Source: Actinomycetota bacterium (GTDB lineage: Bacteria; Actinomycetota; UBA4738; HRBIN12). Taken from it: 64,000 nucleotides of DNA. How positions within the stretch are numbered: position 1 is the stretch's first letter; each line of letters opens with the position of its first letter. The DNA is taken from assembly GCA_046716145.1 (NCBI GenBank), contig JBKJXU010000097.1, forward strand, positions 9,676 to 73,675. The letters run 5' to 3'. The notes under the pieces were generated by a model. That model was given only the letters and a program-made list of their open reading frames with translations. It was not told where the DNA came from and searched no databases. The translations under genes were made by a program, and so were the position numbers. Shown piece after piece: positions 1-7,593 of the stretch.

Positions 1-812
1 CCACCGACGGGCAGCCCGCGGATCCACGGTGCCACCGAGACGAACCGGTCGCGCAGCAGGAACTGGTGCCCGCCTGTCGGTACCTCGAGCCGCTCGGCGT
101 GGGGGATCAGCGCCGTCCACCGTTCCCCGTTATCCGGACCCACGCTCCGATCATCCTCGGCGTAGGCGAGCAGGACCCTCGCGTCGCTGGCCACCAAGGT
201 GGTCGCGGCGGCCGCGGTCTCCGGAACGAGCCCGGGGTCTCCCCAGAGCGACCACAACGTCCAGACGCGGCTGCGGATCGACTGGCGGCCGTAATCGCGC
301 ACCACGGCCCTGGGATAGGGCCCGAGCACCTGCACCGGGACGCTGAGGACCGGCCATGCGGCGCGGGCCGCTGCAACCAACGCGCGCGGTCCGAGCCCAC
401 GAGCCCCCCGCCACCGGGCCGGATCCCAGTCCGCCCGGGGTGAGGGGAACGGTGACGCGGCCATGACGAGACCGGCGATCGCGTCGGGGCGTCGTGCAGC
501 CCAGAGCATGCCGAGGACCCCGCCGAGCGAGTGCCCGATCACGACGGCCGGCTCCGCGAGGCTCTCCGCAACCCGGTCGAGCGTGGCGAGGTGGAATGCC
601 CTATCGGCCGGGTCGCGCTGCTTCGACGATCCGCCGAACCCACCCAGATCGGGAGCCACCACGCGGAACCCGTCGCCCAGCGCCTCGGCCAAGCCGTCCC
701 AATACCGGCCGGACCCGCCCAGACCGTGCACGGCCAGGACCGTCGTCGGACCCTCGCCGGCCTCCCAGATCTTGAGCCGGCCCCAGGGCATCTCCAGCCG
801 GCGGGCGCGCAT
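1..812 (-). CDS. alpha/beta hydrolase fold protein (partial; 3' end runs off the window start)
   Basis: Manual minus-strand translation from ATG at 812 is open to position 1: MRARRLEMPWGRLKIWEAGEGPTTVLAVHGLGGSGRYW...VVIGHSLGGVLG... with G-H-S-L-G-G nucleophile elbow and C-terminal GGHQ. Not in the ORF track because no in-window stop. Confidence 0.7.
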   Translation of the reverse strand, partial: MRARRLEMPWGRLKIWEAGEGPTTVLAVHGLGGSGRYWDGLAEALGDGFRVVAPDLGGFGGSSKQRDPADRAFHLATLDRVAESLAEPAVVIGHSLGGVLGMLWAARRPDAIAGLVMAASPFPSPRADWDPARWRGARGLGPRALVAAARAAWPVLSVPVQVLGPYPRAVVRDYGRQSIRSRVWTLWSLWGDPGLVPETAAAATTLVASDARVLLAYAEDDRSVGPDNGERWTALIPHAERLEVPTGGHQFLLRDRFVSVAPWIRGLPVG

Positions 813-887
813 CCGCGGGAGTCTAGGGCCGCTGACCAGGGCCTTCCGGTCGATGACCTGTGCATCACCCCGCGGTACGGTGGTTAG

Positions 888-1562
888 ATGGACGCGAAGG
901 TGAAGGCGCCTCCGGTCGGACCCACCGTCCCATCGGAGCCGCATACCGGCGGCTGGCGACGGGCGCTGCGCGGGTTCGGGATGGCCTGCCTCATGGGTTC
1001 GGCCTTCTTCGCCGGGTACGTGGCTTGGTTGCTGTGGGGAACCGGGCTGGAGACCGCGCGCGCGCAGGAGACGTTCCGCGGTGCGGTCGTCGAAGAGTGG
1101 GAGCAGCACCCGCGGCCAGTCTCGCAGGCGCCTGAGCCCGGCGAGCGCCAGGTCCCCGGAGACGCCTACGGGGTGATCCAGATCCCGTCCGTCGGCATCG
1201 ACTACGTGGTCGTCGAGGGCACCGGCTACGACGACCTCAAGTCGGGGCCCGGGCACTACGCCGACACGGCGGACCCGTGGGATGGCAGCGGCCGCGTCGG
1301 CATCGCCGGGCACCGCACCACCTACCTCGCGCCGTTCTTCGATCTGGACAAGGTGGCGGTCGGCGACACGATCGAGATCCTCACGGCGTTCGGCACCTAC
1401 ACGTACGAGGTCACGGCCAACTTCGTGCTGCCGGAGGAGACGGCCGGCAAGGTGCTGACCCAGACCAGCGACCCGACCTTGGTCCTCACGACGTGCAACC
1501 CGAAGTACGCCAGCAGCCAGCGTCTGATCGTGGAAGCCGAGCTGGTCAGCGCGCCCGGCTAG
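888..1562 (+). CDS. class E sortase (transpeptidase)
   Basis: 224 aa; N-terminal TM segment; conserved His region; TLVLTTCNP (TLxTC) active-site Cys motif typical of actinobacterial class E sortases. Confidence 0.85.
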   Translation: MDAKVKAPPVGPTVPSEPHTGGWRRALRGFGMACLMGSAFFAGYVAWLLWGTGLETARAQETFRGAVVEEWEQHPRPVSQAPEPGERQVPGDAYGVIQIPSVGIDYVVVEGTGYDDLKSGPGHYADTADPWDGSGRVGIAGHRTTYLAPFFDLDKVAVGDTIEILTAFGTYTYEVTANFVLPEETAGKVLTQTSDPTLVLTTCNPKYASSQRLIVEAELVSAPG

Positions 1563-1571
1563 TGGCGGCTA

Positions 1572-2006
1572 TCACGTGAACACCTGAAGCTCGGTGCACG
1601 AGGCGAGACGATCGAGGTCTGCGTCGCGGTGCAGGATGGCGACGCCGTCGCGCACGCACGGAGCGGCGATGAGGCAATCGAGCGTCTTGCGGATCGTGAC
1701 TCCCTTCCGCCTCGCTTGGCGATACAGGTTCGCCGCGAGCGCGAAGTCATCGATCGAGTCGAGCCGGAGCATCGGGAACGCGCGGAGCCGCCGCTCCACA
1801 CGATCGGCATCGGCCTCGAGCGCGAACCCCTGGAGGATCTCCGTGAAGATGACGTCGGTCAGCGCGAGTGGCGCACCTCCCTCGAGGAGTTCTATGCACC
1901 TGCGAGCTTCGCGCGAGTCACGCTCGTTCAGAACGTCGATCCAGACGCTCGTGTCGACGACGATCACGAACGGGCCCGTCGCGATCGAGCCAGGTCTCCC
2001 TCCCAC
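1572..2006 (-). CDS. vapC: VapC toxin (PIN-domain ribonuclease)
   Basis: PIN-domain signature VIVVDTSVWID...; overlaps upstream RHH antitoxin gene. True start may be an internal GTG. Confidence 0.8.
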   Translation of the reverse strand: MGGRPGSIATGPFVIVVDTSVWIDVLNERDSREARRCIELLEGGAPLALTDVIFTEILQGFALEADADRVERRLRAFPMLRLDSIDDFALAANLYRQARRKGVTIRKTLDCLIAAPCVRDGVAILHRDADLDRLASCTELQVFT

Positions 2007-2161
2007 CGCACGGTCCCTCGGAGCTGGAGGATGCCGGCCCGTTCGTACCGTGCGACGAGTTCGCGGAGCGCCAGGTCGACAGCCTCACGCTTCGTCCGAG
2101 CCCCGGTGAGCCGCTGGACCTCCCTGATCACGTCCTCGTCGATGTCGATGTTCGTTCGCAT
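1964..2161 (-). CDS. vapB: VapB antitoxin (ribbon-helix-helix)
   Basis: MRTNIDIDEDVIREVQRL... typical VapB/RHH N-terminus; overlaps vapC start. Confidence 0.75.
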   Translation of the reverse strand: MRTNIDIDEDVIREVQRLTGARTKREAVDLALRELVARYERAGILQLRGTVRWEGDLARSRRARS

Positions 2162-2229
2162 ACACATGACGATACACCATATTGCTGGAGTTCATACACA
2201 CAACATCCAGCCTCGCGCCGATCCGGACA

Positions 2230-2757
2230 CTAGCCGGCGGCTGCGAGCTTCCTCAGGTTGTCTCGGTCTCGTCGACTCAGCTCAGCGACACCGCGCAACT
2301 CGAGCGCAGCGTTGACGAGAGCGACGAACCTCGCGCGATCCCGCTCCTGATCGCTCACGACCCCGGCCCAGACGGCCACGTCGGACCACCGCCAGAGTCG
2401 GAACCGAGACCGCAGGTGCGACACGGGTGGTGGGAAGTCGCCGGCCCCCCGCTCGCCGGCGGCCAGCAGCCGAACGCTCTCGCGCGTACGCCCCATCCGC
2501 TCCGCGATCTCGGAGAGCGTGACCAGGTCGTCGGGTTCGACCCGGCGGACCCGGACACCATCCACGGACTCAACGTCGGTGATGGCCGAAAGGACGGCCT
2601 CGGCGAAGCCGTCTGCCTCGCGCTCGAACTCCCCGAACCCGACGGCATCGACGGATCCGAACGTCGCGTCATCGCAGCCGGCCTCGAAGAGCGCATCGAC
2701 CGTCGCCTCGTCATCGACGTCACCGTCGACCACCAGCACGAACTCGAACTCAGCCAT
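2230..2757 (-). CDS. putative antitoxin with C-terminal HTH (HicB-like?)
   Basis: 175 aa from ATG 2757 (MAEFEFVLVVDG...). Acidic N-terminal domain, C-terminal helix-turn-helix LVTLSEIAERMGRTRESVRLL. Start lies 2 nt after the stop of the upstream HicA-like gene. Confidence 0.35.
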   Translation of the reverse strand: MAEFEFVLVVDGDVDDEATVDALFEAGCDDATFGSVDAVGFGEFEREADGFAEAVLSAITDVESVDGVRVRRVEPDDLVTLSEIAERMGRTRESVRLLAAGERGAGDFPPPVSHLRSRFRLWRWSDVAVWAGVVSDQERDRARFVALVNAALELRGVAELSRRDRDNLRKLAAAG

Positions 2758-2974
2758 CGTGACCTCCGTGCGGACAACGCATCCCGCTGCGACGGACGGC
2801 CTTCGCATGGTTCATCGGGTTCTTCGGTGTGGACCACACCGATATCACGCAGCCGGCGCCGCAGCGTGCGACGCCCCATCGGTGACCTGCGGCCGTCTGC
2901 TCCACGATCCAGCCGTCCTTCTCGATGTCCTTGAGCGCAGCTTCGACGTCCTTCTTCGGATGGCGAGGCCGCAT
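2750..2974 (-). CDS. HicA-family-like toxin (YcfA-like mRNA interferase)
   Basis: 74 aa; LKDIEKDGWIVEQTAAGHRWGV...VISVWSTPKNP resembles HicA consensus (LEKNGW...GSHHQF...VTVPHPKKD). Confidence 0.45.
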   Translation of the reverse strand: MRPRHPKKDVEAALKDIEKDGWIVEQTAAGHRWGVARCGAGCVISVWSTPKNPMNHAKAVRRSGMRCPHGGHDG

Positions 2975-3039
2975 GCGTTGACATCATGCAACACGGTGTT
3001 GGACGATGTCAACGGTCCCGCCGCTCGGGAGCACGATGT

Positions 3040-3167
3040 GTATCGGCGGTGGGGAGGTGCTGATCCAAACCACCGAGCTGACCTTGGTCCTCACGACGTG
3101 CAACCCGAGGTACGCGAGCAGCTAGCGCCTGATCGTTGGAGCTGAACTGGTGAGCAGACCCGGCTGA
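3040..3167 (+). repeat. degenerate duplicate of the sortase gene 3' end (imperfect direct repeat of 1435-1562)
   Basis: About 85% nt identity to 1461-1562. In-frame it reads GGEVLIQTTELTLVLTTCNPRYASS* versus sortase AGKVLTQTSDPTLVLTTCNPKYASSQ. Confidence 0.7.
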
Positions 3168-3170
3168 GAC

Positions 3171-4325
3171 CTACACGGCGAGCGACGCCGCGATCTCGTC
3201 GTAGGTCGCACCCGCGATCCCTTCCGGCAGTTCCACGGACGCCTGGCCTTTCACGAGGTCATCGTCGGGGATGATGACCAGTGTCGTTCGTTGCTGCCAG
3301 GAGGCGGAGCCATCCACTTCGCGGGTCAGTTGAACGGTGATCGGCCCACCTGCGGGGTCACGCCAGGCCTGAAACTCGACCACGTCTGAGTCCGGGTTCG
3401 GCCTCATGACCGTGCATCCCAACCCCCCATAGTCGGAGCGCAGGCATATCAATGCGTCCTCGGCCTTCGCGATGCTGTCGGGGATGTGCACAGCGATCGA
3501 GACTCCGTCGAGGGTCTCCAAGATCTTCGTGGGCGCATCGAGCAGGCTCCTACAGAGCGGAGGTGCGGCATCCCAATAGGCCATCGTGCCAGGCGCGGGC
3601 AAGTCCGGAGGGGGCGGGAAGATCTCGTCCACGAGATCTTGGAAGCCCGTCATCACGGCGCCCGGCGATCCGCTCGCGTGTTCGATGTTCCAGTCGACGA
3701 TGAGCTGTGCCCTGCTGGCTTCATCCGGAACGCGAGAGGCTATGAACTCCTCGACCACGCTCTCACCGGACCGCGAACCCAGGACCTCGTTGGCGCGTTG
3801 GTCGTAGCCGAACGCAACGAAGAAGGACCCGGATGCGTTGCGTCCGTCGGAACCGATGGTCACCGGACCGGAACCCGAGGCTGCGATCAGATCGAGGAGG
3901 AGCGCCTGATCTCCCGAAAGGCGTACTTCAGAACCGGCTGCCACCGGCGCGTCGGAGCCGTCACCGAACCCGCGGTCCAAGAGCACCTCACTGATACTCG
4001 CCGCGAGGGTTCGATGGTCTGGGTGGTTGACCGGATCTTCGCTCGGCGTGAGACCCTCGGTACCCGGCGCCACGAGCAGCACGACGTCGGCGAAAGGCTC
4101 GGCCCTGATGAGGGGTGCGTCCTCCAGCGGCACGATGTCGTCCGGGTACGGATGCGGGGGTGAGGGTGAGGGTGAGGCATCCGGCCCACACCAGGGCCAC
4201 GGCAGCTCTTCATCCCGAGTGAAGGGTGTCGCCGCGTCCCCGCCGGAGCGCACTAGGAACGCGATCGGAGCCAACCCCACTACCACCAGGGCCAGCGCAA
4301 GGAGAGCCTGCCTGATGCCCTTCAC
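3171..4325 (-). CDS. secreted/membrane-anchored hypothetical protein
   Basis: 384 aa with N-terminal signal/TM (LLALALVVVGLAPIAFL), Pro/Ser-rich linker; no recognisable catalytic motif. Confidence 0.55.
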   Translation of the reverse strand: MKGIRQALLALALVVVGLAPIAFLVRSGGDAATPFTRDEELPWPWCGPDASPSPSPPHPYPDDIVPLEDAPLIRAEPFADVVLLVAPGTEGLTPSEDPVNHPDHRTLAASISEVLLDRGFGDGSDAPVAAGSEVRLSGDQALLLDLIAASGSGPVTIGSDGRNASGSFFVAFGYDQRANEVLGSRSGESVVEEFIASRVPDEASRAQLIVDWNIEHASGSPGAVMTGFQDLVDEIFPPPPDLPAPGTMAYWDAAPPLCRSLLDAPTKILETLDGVSIAVHIPDSIAKAEDALICLRSDYGGLGCTVMRPNPDSDVVEFQAWRDPAGGPITVQLTREVDGSASWQQRTTLVIIPDDDLVKGQASVELPEGIAGATYDEIAASLAV

Positions 4326-4583
4326 TGCGATCGCACCTTTACGTCATCCAGTCGAGCTTCCGCCCTGCACTGGTTCGGGATCTGCGCGCACGTGAACCAG
4401 AGCTTGTTCACCACGGACACGCGTACGGCGACGACAAGTCCAGGTGGTGAGTAACTCGTCGTCGAGTACTGGCTCCAAGTGAGGGTCGGAGTCACAGGAT
4501 TCTCCCGTCGAATCACCCAGTCACCCGAAGCCGAATACTCCCAATTGCAGTGAGCTGTGCTGTTGGGAGCCGGAATCCCAAAG

Positions 4584-5471
4584 TTATTGCCAAGATCCCG
4601 AAACAGCGCGCGTGAGCAGTCTCAGATCCAAACTGCCGTTGTGCGAATCAAGATCCTTGCGGATGTAGGCAGCAGCATCGATCGCTTGAGGGAAGGAAAC
4701 CATTTCCTGTTGGTACACATAAGGATCGCCACCGCCCTGAACCGGCTCCGTCCCTGTGTACCTGTAAGTCCAGCTGCCAACGGGCGAGGATGAACTGCTC
4801 ACTCGGGTCGGGGTCCCGGCGTTCATTGCTACAAATTGGTTGAGCGAGGCTGCGGCCTCGAAACTCGGATCAGCCTGGAATGGAGCATTCGCGCCTGAAG
4901 CCTGCTGATTCGTCAGGGCTGCCCGGTCATCCAGGGAAAGGGACGCCAATTCAGCCTGTGTCGCCTCGGCTGCGCTGTTGGATTGATAACAGGCGCTCGT
5001 GCGCATAGACGCGAGGGCCCCGCCGTTCGGAAGGTTCTCATCGATGGATACATGCGGCAGTCCAAGGACATGGCCGAATTCGTGCACAGCCACGCCGTCC
5101 ATGCGCGCCTGATGGCCTACCAAGGTCCTATCGAGCTCGACGACGCCGTCATCGCAGTGTCCTCTCCCGTACATGCCAAGGCCGGCCACTATCTTCACGT
5201 CGATGTCTGCATTACTCGATACGCGTCGAAGGTCAACGATGTCCGAGCCGTCACGATCGATGACGCTCTCCCATACTGACAAGGCGGCCTCGACGCTGTC
5301 CTTCTCGGCGACGGACCAATCATGATCAACGTTGACGAAGCGATACTTGACGGTGGGTCCGCACACGCCTGTACTGAAGGCGCCTCCCACGTCCTCTCGG
5401 GTTCTCCCATCTCGACTCAGTCCGATCGCGGGCGCAGGAAACTTCGCTGTCAGGGCGATCGCGATAATCAA
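4584..5471 (-). CDS. secreted zinc metalloprotease (metzincin, matrixin/M10-like)
   Basis: HEFGHVLGLPH = HExxHxxGxxH zinc-binding motif; hydrophobic N-terminus; gene region has visibly lower GC (about 50-58%) than surroundings. Confidence 0.75.
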   Translation of the reverse strand: MIIAIALTAKFPAPAIGLSRDGRTREDVGGAFSTGVCGPTVKYRFVNVDHDWSVAEKDSVEAALSVWESVIDRDGSDIVDLRRVSSNADIDVKIVAGLGMYGRGHCDDGVVELDRTLVGHQARMDGVAVHEFGHVLGLPHVSIDENLPNGGALASMRTSACYQSNSAAEATQAELASLSLDDRAALTNQQASGANAPFQADPSFEAAASLNQFVAMNAGTPTRVSSSSSPVGSWTYRYTGTEPVQGGGDPYVYQQEMVSFPQAIDAAAYIRKDLDSHNGSLDLRLLTRAVSGSWQ

Positions 5472-5604
5472 CGCAGCCAGGCAGAGGAGCTACCCTTACC
5501 TGGCTCGGCGCTCCTACCTTCACCCCTCCACCGTAGGGGGGTGGGCCGTTTCCGTCAAGGGAAACGAGATGGTCTGCCTCGCGGAGGAAGCCGAGGCGTG
5601 CCGC

Positions 5605-7143
5605 CTACTCCCACTCGATGGTGCCGGGGGGCTTGCTCGTTATGTCGTAGGCGACCCGGTTCACCCCGGGGACCTCGCGGACGATGCGGCTCGCGATCCG
5701 ATCGAGGACGTCGTGGGGCAGGCGCGCCCAGTCCGCGGTCATCGCGTCCTCGGAGGTGACCGCGCGGATCACGACCGGCGCTTCATAGGTCCGGCCGTCG
5801 CCCATCACTCCGACGCTCGACACATCGGCGAGCAGGACGCAGAACGCCTGCCAGGTCTCGCGTTCCAGGCCGGCGCGGCGGATCTCCTCGCGCACGATGT
5901 GGTCGGCGCCACGCACCTTCGCCAGGTTCTCAACGTTCACCTCGCCGACGATCCGGACGGCGAGACCCGGACCCGGGAACGGCTGACGGTGCACGATCTC
6001 CTCGGGCAGACCCAGCTGCAACCCGACCTGACGGACCTCGTCCTTGAACAGGTCGCGCAGTGGCTCGATCAGCTCGAGATCCATGTCATCGGGCAGGCCG
6101 CCCACGTTGTGGTGGCTCTTGATGTTGGCGGCGGTCTTCGAGCCCGACTCGATCACGTCGGGGTAGAGCGTGCCCTGGACCAGGAACCTCGCGCCCTCGT
6201 GCTCGCGGGCGACCTCCTCGAAGACGCGGATGAACTCCTCGCCGATGGCTTTGCGTTTGCGCTCCGGATCGGTGACACCGGCGAGCTTGACCAGGAACCG
6301 GTCCTGCGCCTTCACATGCACGAGCGGCACGTGGAAGTGGCGCGCGAACGTCTCCTCCACCTGGTCGGGCTCGCCCTCGCGGTTCAGTCCGTGGTCGACG
6401 AACACGCAGGTGAGCTGCTCCCCCACCGCGCGATGCACGAGCAGCGCTGCGACGGCCGAGTCCACCCCTCCGGAGAGCGCACACAGGACCTGCGCCTCGC
6501 CGACCTGCTCGCGGATCCGTGCGACCTGCTCGTCGATGATGTTCGCGGGCGTCCAATCGGGTAGCAGGCCGCAGCCGTCGTAGAGGAACCGTTTCATCAC
6601 GTCCTGGCCGTGCGGCGTGTGCGTGACCTCCGGGTGGAACTGCACCGCGAACAGGCCGCGTTCGGGATCCTCCATCGCCGCGACCGGGATCGTGTCCGTG
6701 GTGGCCGTGACGCGGAACCCCTCGGGGGCGCGCGTCACGGCGTCGCCGTGGCTCATCCACACCGTGTCCTCGGCCGGGAGATCCTGCAGGAGCAGGCCGG
6801 GTTGGGTGACGCGCACCGCGGTGCCGCCGTACTCACGGTCGCCGGTGGCGGCTACCTCGCCACCGAGCGCCTGCGCCATCAACTGGTGGCCGTAGCAGAT
6901 CCCGAGCACCGGGACCCCGAGGTCGAACACCCCCGGGTCGACCTGGGGACCGTCGGGTTCGTAGACGCTCGCGGGGCCGCCGGACAGGATGAGGCCTGCG
7001 GGGCGCTTCGCAGCGAGCTCCGCCTTGGTCAGATCATGCGGGACGATCTCGGAGTAGACGTGGGCCTCGCGGACCCGCCGGGCGATCAGCTGTGCGTACT
7101 GCGCCCCCAGATCGACGACGAGTACGGGCCGCGGATCACTCAT
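5605..7143 (-). CDS. guaA: GMP synthase (glutamine-hydrolysing)
   Basis: 512 aa; class I amidotransferase [11 protein letters not shown]-PPase SGGVDS motif, C-terminal ...KPPGTIEWE. Confidence 0.95.
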
Positions 7144-7161: not shown

Positions 7162-7593
7162 TCATCCCAGCCCCTTGACCGTGATGCCGATGAACTGCCG
7201 GAAGTCCGTGTCGTTCGTCAGGATCGTCGTGGCACCGTGCTCCAGGCACAACGCGGCGATCTGCGCATCGAACACCTCGTCCCCCCGGGGCGTGACGTCG
7301 GCGATCAAGCCGCGTAGCAGGGGGAGGTAGCGACGTCCAGGCATGAGTACCCGAGCGCTCGGGCTAGCGACCAGGTTGTCGACGACCTCCAACGCGCGAC
7401 CGGGGGCCGTCGGTCGTTGCATCGGACCCCTCGGATGCGTAACCACGCGTAGGAACTCACCGATCACGAACACCGGGATCGCCCACGCACCGTGGCCTTC
7501 CGCCAACGCCCTCAGCGCCTCCCGCGCCTGCGCATGCTGCGGCGCCTGGGCGTGGTGCGCGTACACGAGGACGTTGGTGTCGACCGCGATCAC
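7162..7593 (-). CDS. vapC: VapC toxin (PIN domain)
   Basis: MIAVDTNVLVYA... PIN fold; 4-nt overlap with upstream vapB. Confidence 0.8.
   Translation of the reverse strand: MIAVDTNVLVYAHHAQAPQHAQAREALRALAEGHGAWAIPVFVIGEFLRVVTHPRGPMQRPTAPGRALEVVDNLVASPSARVLMPGRRYLPLLRGLIADVTPRGDEVFDAQIAALCLEHGATTILTNDTDFRQFIGITVKGLG

Follow-up and report, generated by a model that had tools for sequence, protein, structure and literature searches.

In a 64,000-nt stretch of the genome of an Actinomycetota bacterium (assembly GCA_046716145.1, contig JBKJXU010000097.1), hereafter the window, the gene for a class E-like sortase is followed, beyond two small putative toxin-antitoxin (TA) operons, by an orphan copy of its own 3' end. 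We refer to the functional end as T1 and to the orphan as T2. Our analysis revealed that T2 is genuine but unremarkable, a scar of recombination within a small, highly variable hotspot that lies between the sortase gene and guaA (GMP synthase); scars of this kind are already known and the TA content is conventional. With about even confidence, we attribute T2 to the joining of two versions of the locus by a recombination event with one homologous and one illegitimate side. A preliminary description of this DNA had proposed that an element, its integrase since lost, was integrated site-specifically into the sortase 3' end and carried the TA genes as cargo, a view that the comparison with related genomes speaks against. 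The two repeat copies and the genes that bound the locus are the following:

888-1562, plus strand: intact sortase gene, class E-like, the conserved left anchor (Pfam Sortase PF04203, E 5e-29)
1447-1562, plus strand: T1, functional sortase 3' end and repeat copy 1, encoding TLVLTTCNP with the catalytic Cys and the conserved SQR
3047-3167, plus strand: T2, orphan, decaying sortase 3' end and repeat copy 2, with an in-frame TAG at 3123-3125 and a terminal TGA at 3165-3167
5605-7143, minus strand: guaA, the conserved right anchor (97% amino acid identity to loci L001 and L046)

The orphan copy of the sortase 3' end

A repeat search of the window recovered positions 1450-1560 and 3055-3165 as a direct repeat of 111 nt with 85% identity. 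Against the whole window, blastn aligned the two copies without gaps (94/111 identities, E 7e-31), while the next-best matches to the repeat reached at most 27 nt, all with E of at least 0.04. Homology sets in at about 3047-3055, fading upstream of about 3047, and at its right end it coincides exactly with the two stop codons (TAG at 1560-1562 in T1, the terminal TGA in T2), the sequences 3' of which are unrelated. The in-frame stop of T2 is a nonsense change from CAG to TAG (translation GGEVLIQTTELTLVLTTCNPRYASS*). The preliminary description, which had placed a repeat of about 85% identity with an in-frame stop at 3040-3167, was therefore accurate on this point.

T1 retains all residues that are conserved among orthologues, while T2 carries replacements at residues that are invariant in 23 orthologues (DPTL to ELTL, KY to RY and E to G). 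The copies differ at 18 of 105 nt, with 2, 6 and 10 differences at codon positions 1, 2 and 3, respectively. Since the differences are spread over all codon positions and are mostly derived on the T2 side, they fit neutral decay since the copies separated. The nearest neighbour of T2 was T1 in 992 of 1000 bootstraps, and the identity of the two at fourfold sites (0.74, 23 sites) exceeds that between the sortase of the window and those of the closest sampled relatives (0.53-0.55). Both results indicate that T2 originated within the organism's own lineage or in a relative that is closer to it than those sampled. A terminator scan found no terminator at T2, and T2 most likely has no function. T2 is thus a sortase 3' end that is non-functional, displaced or orphaned, and oriented like T1, and the intact sortase carries a replacement tail relative to it, as had been described.

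The surroundings of T2 are also informative. Its stop codon lies 3 nt from that of sec384, a convergent gene for a predicted secreted protein, and its upstream end falls at an arbitrary codon (about 186) beside the edge of the second TA-type pair, which belongs to the candidate system PDC-M06; about 33 nt separate the conserved promoter of that cassette from the start of T2. Comparably short spacers follow the sortase elsewhere, with 4 nt in the empty sites of L045 and L050, 3 nt in L027 and 9 nt between T1 and vapC. The end of homology at the stop codon, the 3 nt to the sec384 stop and the arbitrary upstream end together point to a former adjacency of the sortase gene with sec384 and its neighbour, an M10-like metallopeptidase gene (the sec-M10 pair).

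Could T2 be all that is left of a second, once complete sortase, a paralogue or an import, whose first 185 codons were deleted? Import of a fragment with an entire sortase is conceivable. However, tblastn of the window with the sortase returned T2 as the single extra fragment (aa 187-224) and no further sortase-like sequence, and only the roughly 33 nt mentioned above are available between the cassette promoter and T2. Moreover, a second sortase tail, a longer fragment or two sortases, the last of which the preliminary description had named as what would overturn its view, were found in none of more than 30 related loci (26 genome loci and the metagenome loci). We thus regard this origin as improbable.

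It is still less credible that the arrangement is a metagenome assembly chimera of two co-occurring strains. The window is probably a contig of a metagenome-assembled genome (MAG), and the metagenome contigs L048 and L049, which carry the closest sortases (79-80%), end 7 and 31 nt past the sortase stop. Differences at this junction among co-occurring strains would lead to such breaks, which suggest strain heterogeneity. An assembler, however, joins sequences at shared k-mers and not between a cassette promoter and sortase codon 186, and the nonsense codon together with several disabling changes is unlike the sortase of a live strain, so that a chimera of this sort is extremely unlikely.

The sortase-guaA interval in related genomes

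In more than 25 related Actinomycetota MAGs, the sortase gene has guaA as its convergent neighbour and is syntenic with an a/b-hydrolase gene. The comparison loci were MAGs and metagenome contigs of different species rather than a within-species pangenome, and the best available relatives share about 80% sortase identity with the window. Between the two anchors they contain:

L045 (8763-8768) and L050 (2909-2914): empty site, sortase stop-GCGC-guaA stop, the same 4 nt in two different organisms
L001 and L003: vapBC only; the junction of sortase and vapC is that of the window, with unbroken homology through it
L004: ECF sigma gene and redoxin-domain gene, then vapBC
L046: vapBC, the C-terminal two thirds of the 175-aa gene of the PDC-M06 pair (93% amino acid identity) and a GNAT gene, in one homology block to window 283-2588
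L027: PDC-M06 pair 3 nt past the sortase stop, remnant of the redoxin gene, vapBC, orphan guaA tail of about 70 nt, homologues of the sec and M10 genes, end of an IS3-type transposase gene
L030: PDC-M06 pair adjoining the sortase and followed by two other genes
L007, L009, L011 and L019: MFS transporter
L021: two-component system, a call made from reading the open reading frames (ORFs) only
Window: sortase, vapBC, PDC-M06 pair, T2, sec-M10, guaA

The gap between sortase and guaA is thus a hypervariable cassette hotspot of self-contained, promoter-bearing modules. Since L046 aligns to the window as a single block, the order of vapBC followed by the PDC-M06 pair is common to both. The vapB/guaA junction is homologous in L003, L004 and L027, where the guaA stop or its remnant lies 12-20 nt past the motif upstream of vapB.

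A second orphan tail was observed in L027. At positions 2350-2417 of that locus, a diverged guaA 3' end of about 70 nt (…VPGLNRVEEAITRKNPSTIEWG…) separates vapB from the stop codon of the sec384 homologue, and the contig ends in the C-terminus of an IS3-type transposase upstream of the M10 homologue. This guaA tail is the same kind of scar as T2, at the other anchor.

Some further details concern these loci individually. In L046 (1998-2931) a GNAT acetyltransferase gene, which overlaps the guaA stop, replaces the 74-aa gene of the PDC-M06 pair and the N-terminal third of its helix-turn-helix (HTH) gene, leaving a truncated HTH ORF without the putative toxin. A short candidate sortase-end remnant ('CCGGATAG') to the left of vapC in L027 and L004 was dropped, being too short and GC-rich, and the region of L027 between the PDC-M06 pair and vapBC proved to be what is left of the redoxin-domain gene of L004.

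Origin of the orphan tail

The states observed in relatives suggest how T2 may have arisen. Sortase and guaA are convergent core genes, with stops 4 nt apart when the site is empty, and modules are stacked in the gap between them: vapBC, the PDC-M06 pair with its HicA-like fold and the sec-M10 pair here, and in relatives the ECF sigma pair, the MFS transporter, the GNAT gene and others. One parent version would have read sortase, vapBC, PDC-M06 pair, further sequence and guaA, an arrangement observed in L046 and, in simpler form, in L001 and L003. The other would have read sortase, sec-M10 and guaA; this second haplotype, as yet unobserved, and the recombination mechanism are what we infer. 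The homologous side of the join may have been either conserved flank, guaA or the side of the sortase and hydrolase genes, while on the illegitimate side the upstream edge of the PDC-M06 cassette (about 3014-3046) would have been joined to a sortase at codon 186 or so. Such a join would be a case of homology-facilitated illegitimate recombination (HFIR), also described as C-terminal displacement. Homology would end at the stop codon because the two versions were homologous only up to the gene end.

Selection on the sortase may have shaped the outcome. The last 39 codons hold the catalytic Cys and the conserved Arg, and only recombination products with one complete tail (T1) would leave a working sortase. 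Since the tail encodes these residues, its duplication would be tolerated or selected, and the cut-off tail T2, once orphaned, would have decayed neutrally ever since.

Several observations weigh against this explanation. A sortase/sec-M10/guaA haplotype was present in no collection searched; when the five best sortase homologues were followed in search of closer relatives, two more states were obtained (the empty site of L050 and the arrangement of L046), neither of which is this haplotype. A mosaic check of guaA against L001, L045, L003, L002, L007 and L046 detected no region of deviating identity. The illegitimate junction can be placed no finer than 3014-3046, which puts microhomology beyond assessment, and at about 80% sortase identity the closest relatives leave both the donor side and an intragenomic origin possible. 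Finally, the repeat contains a 29-nt identical core, which could have other sources, such as gene conversion or the core site of a recombinase.

An intragenomic duplication that included the sortase tail, for example of a tail-vapBC-PDC-M06 unit, may also be considered, with later deletion of the genes of the second copy leaving the extra tail before sec384. T2 is closest to the genome's own T1, and deletions and remnants are known at this locus, namely the redoxin-gene remnant of L027 and the truncated HTH gene of L046. At least two events would nevertheless be needed, with the end points of the deletion placed precisely, one at the T2 stop and the other 3 nt short of that of sec384. A random duplication does not predict that the right end of the repeat should be the end of the gene, and no intermediate is seen in any relative. 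We consider this course of events rather unlikely, although the duplication/deletion scar that the preliminary description mentioned as its second option comes closer to the data than integration does.

A further idea is that the 4-nt junction of sortase and guaA is a dedicated insertion site, where promoter-bearing modules are stacked by an unrecognised mechanism, independent of a recombinase or acting in trans, that cuts into and regenerates the flanking 3' ends, with orphan tails such as T2 and that of L027 as the trace it leaves. The PDC-M06 cassette encodes an AlpA/excisionase-like protein that might conceivably have a role in such a mechanism. We find this very doubtful.

Independence of the modules and search for a recombinase

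Integrase-mediated genomic islands insert into the 3' end of a gene, commonly a tRNA gene, and restore it, and islands of the GIsul2 type use the guaA 3' end as their insertion site. By analogy, a circular integrative element with vapBC, the second pair and a sortase-tail-like attP could have integrated at the sortase 3' end, supplied T1, displaced T2 and lost its integrase. The likeness is evident: direct repeats of a gene 3' end in the same orientation flank 1.5 kb of extra DNA, homology ends at the stop, the gene is intact and the repeat includes the 29-nt core. In addition, the 175-aa protein falls in a PHROG of 'excisionase and transcriptional regulator' proteins and shows a weak likeness to AlpA, and in L043 a homologous cassette lies 1.2 kb from a tyrosine integrase.

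However, neither an integrase nor a remnant of one was found between sortase and guaA, where all coding capacity (ORFs in 1562-5605) is accounted for. On the far side of guaA, the ten largest ORFs at 7.2-17 kb, a stretch of roughly 10 kb, include no recombinase gene. The left flank consists of syntenic core genes, and tRNA and Rfam scans detected no tRNA or Rfam element at the locus. Furthermore, the genes enclosed by the repeats do not occur as an all-or-none block in relatives. vapBC stands alone at the same junction in L001 and L003 and occurs there in L046 as well, in all three cases without a second tail, and it is a long-standing resident beside the sortase. The PDC-M06 pair is found directly after the sortase in L027 and L030, in the former in the opposite order relative to vapBC, and as a self-contained cassette with its own promoter it occurs in 15 contigs, mostly among housekeeping genes. 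Given this independence of the modules and the lack of a recombinase, the 1.5-kb segment flanked by T1 and T2 does not constitute a single element, and integration is improbable as the source of the repeat.

The toxin-antitoxin modules

As had been reported, T1 and T2 enclose no genes other than those of two minus-strand operons, each made up of two overlapping genes. Judged by sequence, they are putative type II TA or defence-candidate modules of an ordinary kind. The first comprises:

1572-2006 (longest ORF), minus strand: vapC, PIN toxin, with a likely start at about 1967 that overlaps the vapB stop (1964-1966)
1964-2167, minus strand: vapB antitoxin (PF09957, 66.5 bits against a cutoff of 23.4)
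2168-2205, minus strand: upstream region with an operator-like motif, right edge of the vapBC module

The vapC product matches PIN (PF01850, E 2e-14) and NCBIfam TA_toxin_VapC (140.7 bits against a cutoff of 80). VapB shares 88-91% amino acid identity with its homologues in L001, L003, L004, L027 and L046, and the position of vapC and the sortase/vapC junction are the same in L001, L003 and L046. The motif upstream of vapB, ACACAT-N3-GATACACC followed about 20 nt further on by TACACA(T), is kept in 6/6 loci (the window and the five just named) and is probably the VapB operator and promoter. The PIN toxin with its VapB partner, the antitoxin gene first, the overlapping genes on one strand and the operator-like motif agree with known VapBC type II systems and differ from them in no notable respect, apart from being a resident of this locus in several related species. 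The segment 1572-2167 reads as a bona fide vapBC and an ordinary predicted TA module. A further PIN-domain (VapC-like) gene was noted at 7162-7593 (minus strand), directly upstream of guaA and between it and an IMPDH-family gene.

The second operon is less conventional in its family assignment:

2230-2757, minus strand: 175-aa HTH protein, PDC-M06B-like, putative antitoxin or regulator, with an AlpA/excisionase-like winged HTH in its C-terminal half
2750-2974, minus strand: 74-aa protein, PDC-M06A-like, putative toxin, with an 8-nt overlap with the 175-aa gene
2977-3012, minus strand: promoter-like site (TTGACA-18-CATGAT) and a 9-bp inverted repeat (GTTGACATC / GATGTCAAC) read from the sequence, upstream of the 74-aa gene at the right edge of the cassette

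PADLOC assigned the adjacent genes, which lie on the same strand, to PDC-M06 (PDC-M06A, E 6e-19, for the 74-aa protein; PDC-M06B, E 3e-24, for its partner). In PHROGs the pair matches phrog_5923 and phrog_2620 'excisionase and transcriptional regulator', the latter with E 4.5e-30 for the 175-aa protein, which also shows weak matches of its central HTH to Sigma70_r4/HTH_17-like domains and a weak match to AlpA in the PDB (E 0.11). Neither Pfam nor NCBIfam returned a family for the pair. The 74-aa protein did not match Pfam HicA_toxin (PF07927), to which one of 13 family members did (E 0.48), and a profile of its family found no match among PDB sequences.

A structural prediction was more informative. 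The AlphaFold2 model of the 74-aa protein (16 homologues, pLDDT 87.7) has an alpha-beta-beta-beta-alpha arrangement, which is the dsRBD-like topology of HicA. The top three PDB hits of a Foldseek search with this model were the HicA toxins 6g26_E, 6g26_F and 5yrz_B (probability 0.96-0.69, TM 0.54-0.65, weak E of 0.12-0.6), with 6g26_E as the best (probability 0.96, TM 0.55/0.64, E 0.12). G30-H31, invariant in alignments of 13 and of 16 homologues, lies in the beta1-beta2 turn of the model, and it may resemble the Gly/His motif of the HicA active site. The single-sequence model of the 175-aa protein was unusable (pLDDT 49).

The pair thus resembles HicAB in having the small gene first, an overlapping HTH partner and a small protein whose predicted fold is closest to HicA toxins. 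It differs in that the 74-aa protein lacks a significant Pfam HicA_toxin match and has extra invariant Cys and His residues (C38, C42, C67 and H69), and in that its partner has an AlpA/excisionase-like winged HTH in place of the RHH or Xre domain of a typical HicB. The label 'HicA-like' given in the preliminary description appears reasonable at the level of the predicted fold and agrees with PADLOC, but it finds no support in Pfam or NCBIfam, and membership of the pair in HicAB proper is not established.

The pair is kept in 13/15 metagenome loci and in L027, and in 13 other contigs its surroundings are unrelated, consisting mostly of housekeeping genes, with an integrase nearby in one case. 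The homology of L027 to the cassette ends at 3013, while L030 and L031 share shorter spans that stop short of or near this position. A homologous pair is carried by SSU5-type enterobacterial phage-plasmids; it is annotated as HicA/HicB in Escherichia phage Cyrano (L047, OV696614.1, 51112-51960), whose 'HicA toxin protein' is 41% identical to the 74-aa protein, while the annotation in SSU5 is AlpA-like or excisionase. About 120 PLSDB plasmids likewise carry homologues of the 74-aa protein. In the literature we found no paper that mentions PDC-M06.

In nine other loci no direct repeats comparable to the sortase tails flank the PDC-M06 cassette, and only unrelated repeats were seen. In L033 a 62-nt direct repeat (79%; 2236-2297 and 2656-2717, 420 nt apart), both copies of which end in a stop codon, lies just upstream of the cassette and may represent either a pair of small paralogues or a further case of gene-tail duplication. 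In L035 (424-5551) the cassette is found within repeats of 50-90 nt spaced by 2275, 964 and 1838 nt, a layout like that of a cassette array, and in L039 (6353-11580) it lies between palindromic repeats 5 kb apart that contain GACCTTAAAAGGTC. L034 (12133-12494) has five repeats of about 39 nt with a periodicity of 65-74 nt, a CRISPR-like array 3.6 kb from the cassette. The tyrosine integrase of L043 (4890-6617), which has an N-terminal HTH_17 and is encoded upstream of the cassette, is the only recombinase near any context examined.

Other genes of the locus

Two genes lie between T2 and guaA:

3171-4325, minus strand: sec384, predicted secreted protein of 384 aa, function unassigned, no family matches
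4322-5471, minus strand: M10-like zinc metallopeptidase, apparently frameshifted near 4590 (Peptidase_M10, E 2e-6; third-position GC content, GC3, 0.65)

Homologues of sec384 are rare, with only three others among 5.8 billion proteins. One, in L027, comes after vapB and behind the orphan guaA tail, another, in L029, adjoins IS3 genes, and both are paired with an M10-like gene; the third is P0004, on a contig of 1,247 nt. The preliminary description had suggested looking for relatives in which the sortase is directly followed by sec384, and no such relative was found, the contexts of the homologues in L027 and L029 included. Exact look-ups of sec384, the 74-aa ORF and P0001 returned nothing on record.

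The M10 homologue of L029 (398 aa) aligns to the window in frame -2 for aa 34-312 and in frame -3 for aa 313-397, and the gene of the window is either a pseudogene or affected by an assembly indel. GC3 is 0.65-0.83 in the intervening genes and 0.86-0.92 in the anchors. The low value of the M10 gene was considered as a sign of recent import, but this was dropped, as decay of a frameshifted gene explains it equally well, and it was not used to order events. The best NCBIfam match of the sortase was class_E_sortase, with 135 bits, below the cutoff of 160.

Comparison with known systems

The locus leaves current understanding unchanged, but it offers a small and clean example of turnover in a hotspot between core genes without mobile-element machinery, in which selection for a catalytic tail would shape which recombinants survive. 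It also carries a warning for annotation, as a repeat of a gene 3' end on either side of TA genes is insufficient evidence for an integrated element. In addition, PDC-M06, a poorly known candidate defence or TA pair, is hereby placed in Actinomycetota chromosomes besides enterobacterial phage-plasmids.

Hotspots between core genes that lack mobile-element genes and turn over through recombination of the flanking core genes have been described (Oliveira et al., 2017; PMC5635113). The sortase-guaA interval shares with them variable genes between core genes, empty and differently filled states, and the lack of an integrase or transposase. It differs in being very small (0-4 kb), with convergent stops that are only 4 nt apart when it is empty.

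The closest parallel to T2 is offered by the orphan 3' ends, ascribed to HFIR or C-terminal displacement, in rhs, contact-dependent inhibition (CDI) and type VI secretion system (T6SS) effector loci (Kirchberger et al., 2017; PMC5361080); for these, that paper cites Jackson et al. (2009), to which we refer only as cited there. In both cases inserted genes separate an intact gene, whose tip is functional, from a start-less, decaying former tip of the same orientation downstream; one conserved side provides the homologous anchor, and a recombinase gene is not needed. However, the gene concerned here is a housekeeping-type sortase and not a polymorphic toxin, the displaced tip has nearly the same sequence instead of being an alternative toxin domain, there is a single orphan, and the mechanism is a proposed one.

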